This document shows, piece by piece, positions 29,241 through 38,969 of a stretch of DNA of 64,000 nt. The notes under the pieces were generated by a model. That model had not been told where the DNA came from and ran no database searches. It saw only the letters and a program-made list of their open reading frames with translations. Source of the DNA: Tagaea sp. (lineage in GTDB: Bacteria; Pseudomonadota; Alphaproteobacteria; CACIAM-22H2); the NCBI GenBank assembly GCA_044224405.1, contig JBGAKN010000004.1:183810-247809 (forward strand). The letters run 5' to 3'. Position 1 is the first letter of the stretch, and each line of letters opens with the position of its first letter. The position numbers and the translations under genes were made by a program.

Positions 29241-31043
29241 TCAGTTCGCCGGCGCCACGAGATTGCCGAGCAGACGAAGCGCGCCAGGCGTCCCGAATTC
29301 GATCTCGCGGTGCAGGGCCAAAGCCACATGCGTGTGAGCGCCCTTGCCGAAACGTCCGCTCAGCAGGCCACCGGACAGCGGCGCCTGCCCTTGTTCCGTC
29401 ACGCGCAGGAGCGGCACGTAGGCCGGATCCCATTCGGAAGCGAAATAGAGCCCGCGCTCGCCCTGCCAGCCTTCCCAGTCGGCCGGGCCGATCCTTTCGG
29501 GGTACGACAGCAGCCGATGATCCGGATCTGCGACTTCGACGGGCGCCTGCGCGTCGCACACGCGCCACCGGATGCTTGGCCGGCCGATCTCGATGGGGGC
29601 GAGCGGCGTATTCCCCGGCTCCCATCCTGCACCAGCGCGGTGATAGAGGGTCACGAGATGGCCGCCGTCGCGCACGAACGCGTGCAGGTCGCCGACATGC
29701 GCGCGCAGGTCCGCGCGCCGCTCGAAAGCGCGGATCCCGACAAGTACCGTGCTGAAACCGCCATTCGCCAAAAGTGCCGCATCGAACGTCGACATGCCGA
29801 CGACCTCGATCCCGAGCGCTCCAAGGCACGCTTCCATCAGGTCGAGGCCGCCGCCGAGATACGCGACGCGCGCGCCGGACGCGCGCACCCGGCCCGCCGA
29901 CGGCACCGAAAATGCAGCGCGCGGCGATTCCCGGTAGACGGGTCGCGGCGGGCAGTCAGGCTCATCCTTCGCCGCGAGAGCGATCGCGCGGGCGATCTGC
30001 ACCTTCTTGCGATCGAGCCACGCAAGGTCGAGGCGGCACTGCTCGATCGCGCGCAGCGCCGCACCCAGCGGCGCATCGACGCGGTTGCCGCGCGCGTCCG
30101 CATCCAGCGCCTCGTCGATCGCGGCCTGCGCGGCTGCCAGCTCGGCCGAACCGGTCGCCTGCGCCCATTCGCCGACGGTCGCGGGAAGTGTCTGCCCGAT
30201 CCTGTCGGCGATCGCGGTGCCGGCGTCGTGCCGCGCCGCGAGGTGCAGGTTCGCCGGCAGCGTTCCGGCCTCGATCCAAGCACCCATCTCCTGCGTGGCG
30301 TGGCACGCGCGCGACCATTCCCCGATCCGGGCATAGGGCACGCCGGTTTGCGGGTCGAGCATGCCCGTATCGAAACGGACGTGGCTCTCCGGCGGCGGCG
30401 TCCTGTCGTCGTAGGTCGATCCGCTGCCCGACCACGCCGGAAGATAGAAGAGCGTCGGCGCCCACGGCGAAAGGCCTTCGGTGGCGTGCGCGGGAAACGC
30501 TGCGCCATCACCGGATATCGCGAACGCCTCGGCCGTCAGTTCGGTGATCGCGCGATGATGGCCGTGCTGTCCGTCAACATCGAGAAAGGTCGTGCACAGG
30601 ATGTCGGGCCGCACGCGCCGGATGCAGCGGACGATCCGCTCGAGCGTGCGCTCGCGCCCCCAGCGGCGCAGCGCGTCCGCGCCGCTCCGGGAAAATCCGA
30701 AATCGCGCAGCGGATCGGCTGCACCCTCCGAGAGCCAGTGCAGCGAGACACCCAGCCGCACCGCCGCGGCTTCCATCTCGCCCGTCCGCAGAACTCCGAG
30801 AGCGGCGCCGCGCTCGGGACCCAGCGCGTTCTGTCCGCCTTCGCCGCGCGTCGCGCACGCATAGGCGACCGACAGGCCGAGTTTGCGGACCAGAAGCGCG
30901 AGCAGGCCGCTCGACTCGTCGTCGGGATGGGCGCCTGTCTGCAGGAACGAAAGCGTGCCCGGGAGCATGCGAAGCGCGAGCCTTAGCCCCCAGGCGCGCG
31001 CGCCGGCCGCTTCGGCTTCCAGGCGGCGGGCGTCACTACTCAT
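29241..31043 (-). CDS. Large PIG-L/LmbE-family deacetylase fused to a C-terminal ThuA / class-I glutamine-amidotransferase-like domain
   Basis: LSFLQTGAHPDDESSG (PIG-L HPDDE motif) near the N-terminus. About 600 aa. Start MSSDARR at 31043 is ATGA-coupled to the ROK regulator gene. The ORF-track 632-aa version would overlap the ROK gene by about 100 nt. Confidence 0.65.
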   Translation of the reverse strand: MSSDARRLEAEAAGARAWGLRLALRMLPGTLSFLQTGAHPDDESSGLLALLVRKLGLSVAYACATRGEGGQNALGPERGAALGVLRTGEMEAAAVRLGVSLHWLSEGAADPLRDFGFSRSGADALRRWGRERTLERIVRCIRRVRPDILCTTFLDVDGQHGHHRAITELTAEAFAISGDGAAFPAHATEGLSPWAPTLFYLPAWSGSGSTYDDRTPPPESHVRFDTGMLDPQTGVPYARIGEWSRACHATQEMGAWIEAGTLPANLHLAARHDAGTAIADRIGQTLPATVGEWAQATGSAELAAAQAAIDEALDADARGNRVDAPLGAALRAIEQCRLDLAWLDRKKVQIARAIALAAKDEPDCPPRPVYRESPRAAFSVPSAGRVRASGARVAYLGGGLDLMEACLGALGIEVVGMSTFDAALLANGGFSTVLVGIRAFERRADLRAHVGDLHAFVRDGGHLVTLYHRAGAGWEPGNTPLAPIEIGRPSIRWRVCDAQAPVEVADPDHRLLSYPERIGPADWEGWQGERGLYFASEWDPAYVPLLRVTEQGQAPLSGGLLSGRFGKGAHTHVALALHREIEFGTPGALRLLGNLVAPAN

Positions 31044-32197
31044 GCGCGGCCGGCGGCGAGCCGCGTCGCGAGATGCGGCGCTTCGCGTCCGTAGAGAGGG
31101 AGTGCCGCGGCGCCGCGTGCCGCGCTGAACGGTCCGCACTCACCCTTGAGGATGCGCGGCCCCGGACGGGCGACGAGCGGCGCCGGCAGCTTCGCCAGCC
31201 GTTCGACCAGTCCGTCGACAAGCACCGGCGAGAGCCCCGCGATCACCGTCGTGTCGGGATCGAGCACGTTCTCGATCATCAGGACAGCCGCGGCGAGGCG
31301 CGCGGCGGCCCGATCGAGCCAGCCCGAAAGCGCCTTGGGGTCCGGCGCGGCATCGATCGAGGCGACGCCAAGATCGCGCAGCGCCGCCTCGAGCGAGACA
31401 TAGCGCTCGAGGCAGCCGCGCTGGCCGCACGCGCATTGCCGCCCACCCGGCTCGACGACGACATGGCCGATCTCGCCTGCGTTGCCCGTCGCACCGCGAT
31501 AGAGCCGCCCGTCGAGCACGAGGCCAAGGCCAAGGCCACGTCCGAGATAGAGGCAGGCGACACGCGAATATTCCCGGCCCGCACCCAGCAGGTGTTCGCC
31601 GAGCGCCGCAGCGGAAGCATCGTTCTCGAGGACGACGTCATAGCCAAGCGTTGATTTCAGATATGCGGCCGGATCGCTGAGGCGATCCCAGCCGGGCAGG
31701 TTCGTGCTTTCCCTGCCGTTCTTCTCGATGCCGGACGGCCACGGCGCCACGATTCCGATGCCGAAGACCGGCCCGGCGGCCTTGGCCCCCTTGCGCGCCA
31801 GATAGGGCCGGATCTGCTTGGGAAGCAGCCGCGCGACAGTCTTGGGATCGGCCGACGGCAGGCCGATGATTTCCTGGCGCAACGGTTCGCCCGCGAGATC
31901 CGCCAGCACCAGCACCATCTCGTCATGCCGGAGTTCGATGCCGATCGTCACGCCGCCGGCGGGATTGATCGCGAGATCGAGCGGCGGCTGGCCGCGCCCG
32001 CCGCGCCGGCGCCCGGCGTCGCGCAGCAGGCGCTCGCGCAGCAATTCGTCGGCGATGTTCGTGACGCCCTGCGCCGACAGCCCGGTAAGCCGGGCAAGAT
32101 CGGCGCGGCTCAACGGGCCGTGCCGGCGCAGCGCCTGCAGCACCACGCGCCGGTTGTGCTCGCGCGTATCGTAGACATTGGCGGCCATTCCCGACAT
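31040..32197 (-). CDS. ROK-family (NagC/Mlc-like) transcriptional regulator
   Basis: N-terminal HTH RVVLQALRRHGPLSRADLARLTGLSAQGVTNIADEL, ROK sugar-kinase-like domain, and Zn-motif CACGQRGCLE. Confidence 0.8.
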   Translation of the reverse strand: MSGMAANVYDTREHNRRVVLQALRRHGPLSRADLARLTGLSAQGVTNIADELLRERLLRDAGRRRGGRGQPPLDLAINPAGGVTIGIELRHDEMVLVLADLAGEPLRQEIIGLPSADPKTVARLLPKQIRPYLARKGAKAAGPVFGIGIVAPWPSGIEKNGRESTNLPGWDRLSDPAAYLKSTLGYDVVLENDASAAALGEHLLGAGREYSRVACLYLGRGLGLGLVLDGRLYRGATGNAGEIGHVVVEPGGRQCACGQRGCLERYVSLEAALRDLGVASIDAAPDPKALSGWLDRAAARLAAAVLMIENVLDPDTTVIAGLSPVLVDGLVERLAKLPAPLVARPGPRILKGECGPFSAARGAAALPLYGREAPHLATRLAAGRA

Positions 32198-37992: not shown

Positions 37993-38969
37993 TGAACGAG
38001 GGGGCCCAGATCGTCTGCGTCGGCCGGATCTATGCCGATATTGTCCTGGCCGGGCTTGACCGCCTGCCCGAACTCGGCCGCGAGATCTATGCGCAGGATA
38101 TCGCCATCGCGCCCGGCGGCGGTGCTGCGATCTCTGCGGTCTTTCTCGCGCATCTCGGCCGGAAGGTGGAGCTAGCCGGCGCGCTCGGTACCGACCCGAT
38201 TTCGAACGCTATCGAACAGGAGCTCCGCACGACTGGCGTCGGCCTCGGACTGCTCGAGCGCTTCGTCGACGGGCCGCAGATCACCGTGGCATTGCCGCTT
38301 AAGGGCGACCGCGCGTTCGTGACGAAGCGGGCCGGTCCCGCCGTTCCGGGCGGGGTCGCGGAATATCTGCGTCGCGGCGGCGTCCGCCATCTGCATGTCG
38401 CCGAGCTTGCCACGCTGCTCGACGCGCGCTGGCTGCTCGCGCTCGCGCGCGAATGCGGTGCCACTGTTTCGCTCGACGTCGCGTGGGACGAGGCGGCACT
38501 CCGCGATCCTCAAGCGCTCGCACTTGCCCGGTCCGTCGATGTCCTTTTCCCGAACGGCGACGAGGCTGCGGCATTGACCGGACTGTCCGGCCGGTCGTCC
38601 GACGCGCTTGTGCGGGATCTTTCGGGCGACGGCGCGTGCGTCGTCCTCAAGAACGGCAGCGAGGGCGCGATCCTGTCCGATGGACGCCGGTCGTTCCGGG
38701 CCGATGCGCTCGCGGTGCAGGTCGTCGACACGACCGGAGCCGGCGACGCGTTTGCAGCCGGGTTCCTCGATGCATGGCTCGATGGCAATCCACCGGAGTC
38801 ATGCCTTGCACGCGCGATCGCATGCGGCACCTTCGCTGTCACGCATTTCGGTGGCACGCTTGTCCTGCCGACGCGCCAGACGATCAGGGACATGGAGCGG
38901 GATGTCCGCATCCATGCGATTCATCGCACGCCATCGGGAGCGATGCCGGACAAAGCCCCCAGCATCTGA
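37992..38969 (+). CDS. PfkB-family carbohydrate kinase (ribokinase-like)
   Basis: VNEGAQIVCVGRIYADIVL N-terminal motif. C-terminal DTTGAGDAFAAGFL (PfkB signature 2) and DGACVVLKNGSEGA. GTG start overlaps the ATPase stop. Confidence 0.75.
   Translation: MNEGAQIVCVGRIYADIVLAGLDRLPELGREIYAQDIAIAPGGGAAISAVFLAHLGRKVELAGALGTDPISNAIEQELRTTGVGLGLLERFVDGPQITVALPLKGDRAFVTKRAGPAVPGGVAEYLRRGGVRHLHVAELATLLDARWLLALARECGATVSLDVAWDEAALRDPQALALARSVDVLFPNGDEAAALTGLSGRSSDALVRDLSGDGACVVLKNGSEGAILSDGRRSFRADALAVQVVDTTGAGDAFAAGFLDAWLDGNPPESCLARAIACGTFAVTHFGGTLVLPTRQTIRDMERDVRIHAIHRTPSGAMPDKAPSI

Follow-up and report, generated by a model that had tools for sequence, protein, structure and literature searches.

What is an enzyme of the argininosuccinate lyase (ASL) branch of the class-II fumarate lyases doing in the middle of a sugar-uptake operon? 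The question is posed by a 64,000-nucleotide stretch of the Tagaea sp. genome (contig JBGAKN010000004.1, positions 183,810 to 247,809; hereafter the window), in which the lyase gene lies among the genes of an ATP-binding cassette (ABC) importer, in the company of a sugar kinase, a ROK-family regulator and a large PIG-L fusion protein. Our answer, to which we give roughly even credence, is that these genes form a catabolic module under ROK control, serving an imported hexosamine conjugate that carries a 2-substituted succinate of the malyl or aspartyl type, from which the lyase would eliminate fumarate. The original prediction, made from the DNA letters, had called the locus a candidate undescribed catabolic pathway. 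This description stands: the component families are known, but a literature search, with most subscription journals outside its coverage, found no description of the gene combination, of the module or of its substrate. The locus comprises the following features (SBP, substrate-binding protein; CUT1, carbohydrate uptake transporter 1).

29241-31043, minus strand: 600-residue fusion of a PIG-L/LmbE zinc deacylase with a predicted ThuA-like (GATase1-like) C-terminal domain (Pfam PF02585, E 1e-19)
31040-32197, minus strand: ROK-family transcriptional regulator, NagC/Mlc-like (Pfam ROK and MarR_2/HTH_24)
32198-32346, no strand: 149-bp gap between the divergent genes, the presumed site of the operator and of the promoters of both transcription units
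32347-33603, plus strand: periplasmic SBP of a CUT1-type carbohydrate ABC importer (Pfam SBP_bac_1/8)
33610-33637, plus strand: GC-rich hairpin with a T-run (12-bp stem, 10 GC pairs; a consensus match only)
33650-34543, plus strand: ABC permease 1 (Pfam BPD_transp_1)
34546-35394, plus strand: ABC permease 2 (Pfam BPD_transp_1)
35400-36908, plus strand: ASL-branch class-II fumarate-lyase-family enzyme, 502 residues (Pfam Lyase_1 and ASL_C2)
36919-37992, plus strand: MalK/UgpC-like ABC ATPase with a TOBE regulatory domain (Pfam ABC_tran, OB_MalK and TOBE_2)
37992-38969, plus strand: PfkB-family sugar kinase with the GAGD anion-hole motif (Pfam PfkB, E 4.5e-41)

All eight genes were found in the order and at the coordinates originally given, each with the expected Pfam match.

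The lyase and its distance from ArgH

The lyase matches PF00206 (Lyase_1) with an E value of 1.4e-39 and PF14698 (ASL_C2) with one of 1.9e-9, and its top matches in the PDB are all ASL or delta-crystallin, the closest solved structure being Thermus ArgH (2e9f, 197 bits). It had been proposed as a member of the ASL/PurB family; the NCBIfam profile scores uphold the ASL branch but not the PurB branch. With ArgH/delta-crystallin (EC 4.3.2.1) it shares the fold, the domain pair Lyase_1 and ASL_C2, the catalytic serine of the SS-loop, the lysine and asparagine of GSSxMPQKxN, the Thr-His of YTH and the glutamate after NPxxxE. It differs from ArgH in having about 40 extra C-terminal residues and in its setting, which is a sugar ABC operon, often on a plasmid, and not an arginine context.

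Could the lyase nevertheless be a plain ArgH, a housekeeping or spare copy that lies in a sugar operon by chance, as the NCBI annotation would have it? It does pass the cut-off of the ArgH equivalog model TIGR00838, by 10 bits (289.8 against 279.5), and public records name all of its orthologues argH or argininosuccinate lyase. However, the score of E. coli ArgH on that model is 717.3 bits, and the best-scoring NCBIfam model for the lyase is that of a paralogue family, NF005218/PRK06705 (294 bits, cut-off 883). In a MAFFT identity matrix, E. coli ArgH and Thermus ArgH are 28% and 34% identical to the lyase, respectively, and 51% identical to each other. The lyase is as distant from ArgH as is ethylenediaminedisuccinate (EDDS) lyase, and it stands no closer to ArgH than to EDDS lyase itself (31% identity, 153-156 bits). 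Four conserved ArgH segments are all replaced by others that are invariant within the lyase family: SRNDQVATD by SRNDIDHTV, THLQRAQP by THGQPAQP, KNPD by RNPV, and LAYNKDLQEDK by FTDMNDIEGEV. Furthermore, orthologues with 53-65% identity occur on 27 plasmid records of PLSDB, often megaplasmids, everything else in that database falling sharply to 38% identity or less, and the lyase is fixed in the transporter operon in about 60 of 61 species. A chance-placed ArgH thus has hardly any probability left. No second argH copy is present within the 64-kb window. Judged by these profile scores and identities, the lyase does not cluster with housekeeping ArgH and is a distinct clade, representing a new functional subfamily.

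This placement has a bearing on current annotation. The NCBI Prokaryotic Genome Annotation Pipeline calls every orthologue argH, with the Gene Ontology term 'arginine biosynthetic process via ornithine', and the neighbouring ATPase is named UgpC in NCBI records. Both names are likely over-annotations, arising from permissive model cut-offs. Since hundreds of genomes carry the argH label, metabolic reconstructions that rely on it would be wrong for these loci.

The catalytic apparatus itself is retained. The SS-loop ISSIMPQKRNP is intact at residues 280-290, as predicted, and an alignment of sequences from two phyla shows no variation at R113, N114, T159, H160, S281, S282, K287, N289 and E294. 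Compared with the solved structures and with E. coli ArgH, the catalytic and fumarate-side motifs RSRND, YTH, SSxMPQKxN and the glutamate after NPxxxE are all in place; the catalytic serine, lysine, asparagine, histidine and glutamate and the three fumarate-lyase signature regions, whose conservation had been suggested as a check, are thus preserved, which fits a fumarate-eliminating reaction. The lyase retains the full equipment for taking a proton from beside a carboxylate and driving off a leaving group at the adjacent carboxylate-bearing carbon.

The leaving-group side tells a different story. The amine-binding pocket of EDDS lyase is flanked on one side by Asp290, the D of NPD, and on the other by Tyr320 (PMC6973171). 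These two residues align with V291 and D321 of the lyase, both of which are invariant in 12 sequences including Deinococcus. With the ArgH pocket roles assigned by alignment to EDDS lyase, the leaving-group pocket of the lyase appears to have been remodelled into a polar one with Asp, His, Asn and Phe. Two signatures, QKRNPVxxEH and [HR]NTPF[TM]DM[NT]D, mark the family. The latter is found in 80 of the 80 species-level orthologues fetched, and it alone counts as independent evidence, NPV having been part of the pattern by which these loci were found. The lyases of Deinococcus and Bacillus share QKRNPVxxEH and HNxPFxD, both missing in ArgH. The family offers a compact, conserved and tractable entry to what may be a new reaction of the fumarate-lyase superfamily.

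The conserved module and its probable sugar

Scanning one genome per species with the family patterns gave matches in more than 535 genomes. From these, 80 loci chosen by the family motifs were kept and the seed proteins were mapped onto them by tblastn; the counts given here refer to the 61 loci with enough flanking sequence. The order SBP-permease-permease-lyase-ATPase recurs in 58-60 of the 61 species loci (SBP and permease 1 in 58 each, permease 2 in 59, the ATPase, directly after the lyase, in 60), indicating that the arrangement is not due to chance. The lyase, placed between permease 2 and the ATPase, is accordingly the bona fide operon member that it had been claimed to be. The core is accompanied by the PIG-L fusion in 48 loci, by the ROK regulator in 46 (with a LacI regulator in its place in about 10), by a kinase in 41 (38 PfkB, 3 ROK) and by a NagB-II-like SIS protein in 7. 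A ROK gene beside SBP-permease-permease-lyase-ATPase-kinase is seen in neighbourhoods from Ochrobactrum, Microvirga, Oceanicella, Aminobacter, Loktanella and Thalassospira, and the same layout occurs in a Rhodospirillales metagenome-assembled genome with an 89%-identical lyase. In about 30 loci, roughly half of the alphaproteobacterial ones (e.g., at 1058-1876 of locus L006), a gene for an EamA/DMT-family transporter, absent from the window, adjoins the PIG-L fusion gene. Clustering of the unassigned open reading frames around the 80 loci yielded, besides EamA/DMT and LacI, only unrelated genes.

The module extends beyond the Alphaproteobacteria. SBP orthologues stand next to the lyase in both Alphaproteobacteria and Deinococcus (43-57% identity), those of Deinococcus being 43-47% identical and lying beside a 32%-identical lyase. 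Plasmid 1 of Deinococcus deserti carries the order ROK-lyase-SBP-permease-permease-PIG-L (277 residues)-PfkB, and the relatives of its lyase are, among the matches listed, Deinococcota in 120 cases out of 120. In Deinobacterium chartae, two large PIG-L/NEW3(/CBM9) fusions carry signal peptides, and one of the two is a full-length orthologue of the alphaproteobacterial fusion with 33% identity. The order in Trueperaceae (L098 and L100) is ROK-Amidohydro_2-lyase-SBP-permease-permease; in these minimal versions, the PIG-L position immediately before the lyase gene is filled by an Amidohydro_2 (PF04909) protein, and no kinase is linked. Finally, a plasmid of Bacillus sp. F19 combines a ROK regulator, an ABC system with an SBP_bac_6-type SBP, a creatininase-family hydrolase, the lyase (37.6% identity), a BadF-type kinase and a second ROK protein with a secreted 837-residue PIG-L/NEW3/ThuA-like orthologue (34% identity, E 7e-149). 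The composition of the operon, for which a comparison of gene neighbourhoods had been recommended, is therefore conserved across orders and phyla, and this recurrence suggests an ancient, functional association of the lyase clade with a sugar kinase, a metal hydrolase, an ABC importer and a ROK regulator.

The nature of the sugar is suggested by the genes that come and go around this core. Loktanella has an attached NagB that passes TIGR00502, and that of Oceanicella falls just under the cut-off. In Ochrobactrum, Bosea, Salinarimonas and the 89% relative, the attached gene encodes a NagB-II-like SIS protein; such SIS neighbours score best as NagB-II, with 317 and 250 bits, and give no match to FrlB. 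The kinase family varies between loci (PfkB, ROK, BadF/NagK-like) while the rest of the module is constant, and the Bacillus BadF-type kinase scores best as NagK. Such non-orthologous replacement would be expected if the kinase acts on a simple sugar. Together with the NagB and NagB-II genes, the NagK-like kinase and the PIG-L fold, it points to the release of glucosamine (GlcN) or N-acetylglucosamine (GlcNAc), with glucosamine-6-phosphate as the funnel. A succino-nucleoside substrate, which had been among those proposed, is argued against by the attached NagB/NagB-II genes and by the variation in kinases. The PfkB kinase of the window reaches no NCBIfam equivalog and matches fructoselysine 6-kinase weakly (E 1.5e-17). 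A glucosamine system of Sinorhizobium (SM_b21216-21221, kinase SM_b21217), assigned to its substrate by randomly barcoded transposon sequencing (PMC11378808, PMC4961836), was considered as the same module and set aside: its SBP and kinase are not among the plasmid matches (E < 1e-40 and E < 1e-25, respectively), and it is not a close homologue.

The PIG-L fusion is the most conspicuous accessory. In its N-terminal domain, the motifs AHPDDE and HGHH (HxxH) are invariant, comprising H39, D41, D42, H160, H162 and H163. A search of the PDB by sequence gave no match for the fusion. An AlphaFold2 model (pLDDT, the predicted local distance difference test score, 88.7) was therefore compared using Foldseek, which related the N-domain to MshB, LnmX, diacetylchitobiose deacetylase and BshB (E 1e-9 to 1e-5) and the C-domain to ThuA-like proteins, STM3548 and the GH42 non-catalytic domain, so that the C-terminal part is, by its modelled fold, probably a ThuA-like or class-I glutamine-amidotransferase-like domain. 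The characterised deacylases among these relatives, MshB, diacetylchitobiose deacetylase and BshB, N-deacylate GlcNAc glycosides at the 2-amino position; LnmX is a putative deacetylase only. The fusion thus resembles BshB, MshB, Mca and diacetylchitobiose deacetylase in the fold and the AHPDDE/HxxH zinc motifs of its N-domain. Unlike them, it carries the extra ThuA-like domain, together with NEW3 in most orthologues, and it falls far under every equivalog cut-off: although the PIG-L proteins of the module score best as MshB, Mca and BshB, the window copy reaches 34, 32 and 26 bits on the BshB, MshB and Mca models, against cut-offs of 277, 224 and 183, and the short Deinococcus PIG-L protein, with 145 bits on MshB, is also under the cut-off.

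The ThuA-like domain (29241-29900) is strongly conserved, with ERG and GRHTH motifs and the invariant polar residues E529, R530, H570, T571, H572, R492, R494, D522 and W523. These are more than a pure oligomerisation domain would be expected to keep, and the domain may contain a further catalytic or ligand-binding site. The NEW3 beta-sandwich of about 200 residues, found in most of the orthologues, which are about 800 residues long, is missing from the window copy and from its nearest relatives. Like the other alphaproteobacterial copies, the window fusion has no signal peptide; a Sec signal peptide precedes the PIG-L/NEW3/ThuA-like fusions of Bacillus sp. F19 (L096, 12108-14621) and D. chartae (L099, 10410-15308), and the sister fusion in D. 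chartae also has CBM9.

Proposed pathway and competing substrates

In the pathway that we propose, the CUT1 ABC system would import the conjugate and the PIG-L enzyme would take the N-acyl group off the 2-amino position of a GlcNAc-type sugar. The serine of the lyase SS-loop would then abstract the C3 proton of the succinate, with elimination of fumarate and release of the sugar, which the kinase would convert into a hexosamine-6-phosphate. A NagB or NagB-II deaminase, the gene for which is attached in some genomes only, would turn the latter into fructose-6-phosphate and ammonia. We infer all of these chemical steps, as well as their order, from the gene families. The original prediction had the kinase act first and the lyase remove fumarate from an N-succino substituent; of this scheme, the lyase as part of a conserved transport and catabolic operon and the elimination of fumarate, which fits the conserved motifs, hold up, but neither the kinase-first order nor the N-linkage is established, cleavage of a C-O bond being equally possible. 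The nutrient, whatever its linkage, would be one imported by soil and marine Alphaproteobacteria, Deinococcus and some Bacilli.

Among described systems, the nag and frl/fra operons come closest in their succession of regulator, ABC uptake, sugar kinase and isomerising deaminase or deglycase, but they contain neither a fumarate-lyase-family enzyme nor a PIG-L/ThuA-like fusion. The locus does not qualify as an Amadori operon of the frl/fra type, the attached SIS proteins scoring best as NagB-II with no FrlB match and the window having no SIS gene. A close catabolic counterpart of the lyase is the EDDS lyase of Chelativorans sp. BNC1 (PDB 6G3D-6G3I), likewise an ASL-branch paralogue of about 500 residues from the Rhizobiales, which releases fumarate from an N-substituted aspartate, this being EDDS lyase's own activity. 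Unlike the lyase described here, it is without the YTH histidine, and we know of no link between EDDS lyase and sugar genes.

For the O-linked version of the proposal, a favoured candidate substrate can be named, although we regard it as unlikely to be the right one: N-acetylglucosaminyl-malate or glucosaminyl-malate, cleaved at the malyl C-O bond to yield GlcN(Ac) and fumarate. Bacillithiol is built on this backbone, and the PIG-L enzyme BshB converts the first compound into the second. To our knowledge, GlcNAc-malate is the one natural compound that combines GlcNAc, a 2-substituted succinate and a PIG-L reaction, and an O-linked malyl substrate would give the PIG-L enzyme of the module a known reaction. 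Elimination across a C-O bond would have a precedent within the ASL branch in XcbC, which eliminates phosphate from phosphosulfolactate in bacterial coenzyme M synthesis; on the XcbC model NF052535, the lyase scores 180 bits against a cut-off of 575. Another recruited member of the superfamily is the S-(2-succino) lyase 2SL, which operates with acyl-transfer and deacylase enzymes in a yxe-type operon for the breakdown of S-(2-succino)cysteine (PMC9706529). XcbC and 2SL thus exemplify the recruitment of superfamily members for O- and S-linked leaving groups, but they act on other substrates, and their contexts include no sugar transporter, kinase or PIG-L protein.

Taken one step further, the lyase would be a non-hydrolytic 'glycoside lyase' and the operon the first catabolic, or scavenging, pathway for bacillithiol or its backbone, a suggestion that we likewise consider doubtful. 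The PIG-L fusion would then be a deacylase comparable to BshB or Bca, and export of the liberated thiol amino acid would fall to the neighbouring EamA protein. If the guess at the backbone were true, it would explain the environmental recycling of a very widespread bacterial thiol, by a pathway itself widespread in soil and marine Alphaproteobacteria, Deinococcota and some Bacilli.

Several observations weigh against the hexosamine-conjugate module and against its more specific forms. No homologue of any component has been characterised. Thirteen of the 61 loci have no PIG-L gene and 20 have no kinase, and within the 64-kb window there is neither a deaminase gene nor a SIS gene. The Amidohydro_2 protein of Trueperaceae and the creatininase-family enzyme of Bacillus raise the possibility that the hydrolase step is not a simple deacetylation. 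With their NEW3 and CBM9 modules, the secreted fusions of Bacillus and Deinobacterium look more suited to a glycan than to a small fragment of a thiol, and GlcNAc-malate was put forward only for its combination of GlcNAc, a 2-substituted succinate and a PIG-L reaction. In addition, Bacillus sp. N5-665 (L097, 7947-9473) encodes a PRK06705-type 'argininosuccinate lyase' paralogue with the NPV..EH and HNTPFGD signature, the neighbours of which are a sodium:solute symporter, an inosine-uridine nucleoside hydrolase, a beta-lactamase-like protein and a GNAT protein; the presence of this B. cereus-like paralogue beside a nucleoside hydrolase suggests that the signature is probably not tied to one substrate.

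The same module could instead handle an N-linked succinate, that is, an aspartate-sugar adduct of the Heyns (N-(2-deoxyglucos-2-yl)-aspartate, or N-succino-glucosamine) or Amadori (fructose-aspartate) type, with C-N cleavage giving fumarate and glucosamine or fructosamine for subsequent phosphorylation and deamination or deglycation. We think this improbable, though it has chemistry in its favour: C-N cleavage is the default of the ASL branch, EDDS lyase accepts N-alkyl-aspartates, and the step would be more conservative than one at an O-linkage. The gene content agrees in part. A CUT1 ABC system with PfkB and a two-SIS-domain protein is the layout of the known frl/fra Amadori operons, the weak resemblance of the PfkB kinase to fructoselysine 6-kinase points the same way, and loci with PfkB and SIS but no PIG-L (Ochrobactrum, Bosea) would suit an amine freed after lysis. 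By contrast, such a substrate leaves no role for the PIG-L deacylase, present in 48 of the 61 loci as well as in Deinococcota and Bacillus, and a FrlB-type deglycase would free aspartate directly, making the lyase unnecessary. The SIS neighbours are, moreover, of the NagB-II and not the FrlB type, and a true NagB occurs in Rhodobacterales, which weakens, for this lyase family, the Amadori compounds listed among the substrates in the original prediction. If the substrate were an aspartate-sugar adduct after all, the module would represent a third, lyase-based route of glycation-product catabolism.

A related observation concerns plasmid pRCB133 of Rhodobacter capsulatus (L094, 122595-132929; L095), which encodes a different ASL paralogue, 30% identical and with the motifs KNML and YSIGLD, beside a FrlB-like SIS protein, a second SIS protein, a BadF kinase, a CUT1 ABC system and a ROK regulator, with an asparaginase and a GntR regulator near, across the plasmid origin. 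Similar paralogues are matched on Cereibacter plasmids. The R. capsulatus locus may be an Amadori system of the fructose-asparagine/aspartate type that uses a lyase, and this second paralogue, next to a FrlB-like SIS protein and near an asparaginase, counts in favour of N-linked substrates.

Less probable still is the import of a GlcNAc oligosaccharide or glycan, such as a chito-oligosaccharide or a cell-wall fragment, which PIG-L would deacetylate as in the archaeal chitin pathway while the lyase acts on another acidic substituent or forms a product unrelated to fumarate elimination. The PIG-L domain is indeed as close to diacetylchitobiose deacetylase as to MshB, fusions with NEW3 and CBM9 are secreted in Bacillus and Deinobacterium, CUT1 systems usually carry di- and oligosaccharides, and the ROK regulator is NagC/Mlc-like. 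However, no glycoside hydrolase is conserved in any locus examined, and the invariant place of the lyase among the transporter genes, as well as its intact signature regions, would go unexplained.

It is very unlikely that the substrate contains no sugar and is an aminopolycarboxylate or an opine-like N-succino compound of the kind represented by EDDS, iminodisuccinate and aspergillomarasmine, with the sugar genes coincidental or serving a separate co-substrate. In favour of this reading, EDDS lyase is an equally close solved relative from the Rhizobiales, minimal loci consist only of the lyase and ABC genes with a LacI regulator, and the SBP_bac_6-type transporter of the Bacillus version is typical of charged small solutes. 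Against it, the pocket residues of EDDS lyase are not conserved, and the association with ROK, PIG-L, sugar kinases and glucosamine-6-phosphate deaminases extends across three phyla.

Layout of the locus and its surroundings

The genes of the module are tightly packed. On the minus strand, the ATG of the PIG-L fusion overlaps the stop codon of the ROK gene (ATGA), a case of translational coupling; on the plus strand, the PfkB gene begins with GTG and overlaps the ATPase gene by 1 nt, and the intergenic gaps measure at most 46 bp, the widest being that from the SBP gene to permease 1, which contains the hairpin. Located directly 3' of the SBP stop codon, this hairpin is likely, to judge from its sequence, an intra-operon attenuator or mRNA stabiliser, and it may raise the expression of the SBP over that of the downstream genes. 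A scan of the 149-bp divergent region detected no sigma-70 consensus and no inverted repeat. The ROK regulator has an N-terminal winged helix-turn-helix and a CxCGxxGC zinc motif; among the NCBIfam models it scores highest on Mlc and NagC, reaching about 115 bits on them and staying under their cut-offs.

According to Pfam, the CUT1 importer set is complete at the locus, with a family-1 SBP, two BPD_transp_1 permeases and a MalK-type ATPase with TOBE. The SBP ligand could not be assigned by homology, with no close solved structure in the PDB: the nearest relatives there are about 25% identical and bind unrelated sugars, the top one being 7bvt (83 bits). The G+C content of the window is about 66%, as a result of which many spurious open reading frames overlap the real genes.

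Immediately downstream, at 39022-42708, lie cobalamin-biosynthesis genes for a TP_methylase (minus strand), a CobG-like NIR_SIR protein, a CbiC precorrin-8X methylmutase and another TP_methylase; the 89% relative has its NagB-II-like SIS gene at this position, directly after PfkB. On the other side, at 19035-24152, there is a ring-cleavage cluster of the gallate/protocatechuate type, with a LysR regulator, a DUF1932/NAD-binding protein, a PrpF (GalD-like) isomerase, a fused LigB+LigA dioxygenase and a small protein of the PIG-L fold, a GalB-like hydratase (compare PDB 5cgz). The 89% relative (L011) has this cluster immediately next to its PIG-L fusion gene. In the window, the two are separated by a second ABC importer (25234-28962), composed of an SBP_bac_6-type SBP, an ATPase and a fused double permease of 549 residues, an architecture shared with the transporter of the Bacillus sp. 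F19 module. Given the low identity between the two (25-31% for SBP and permease, 46% for the ATPase) and its absence at the same position in the close relative, this second importer is probably unrelated to the module.

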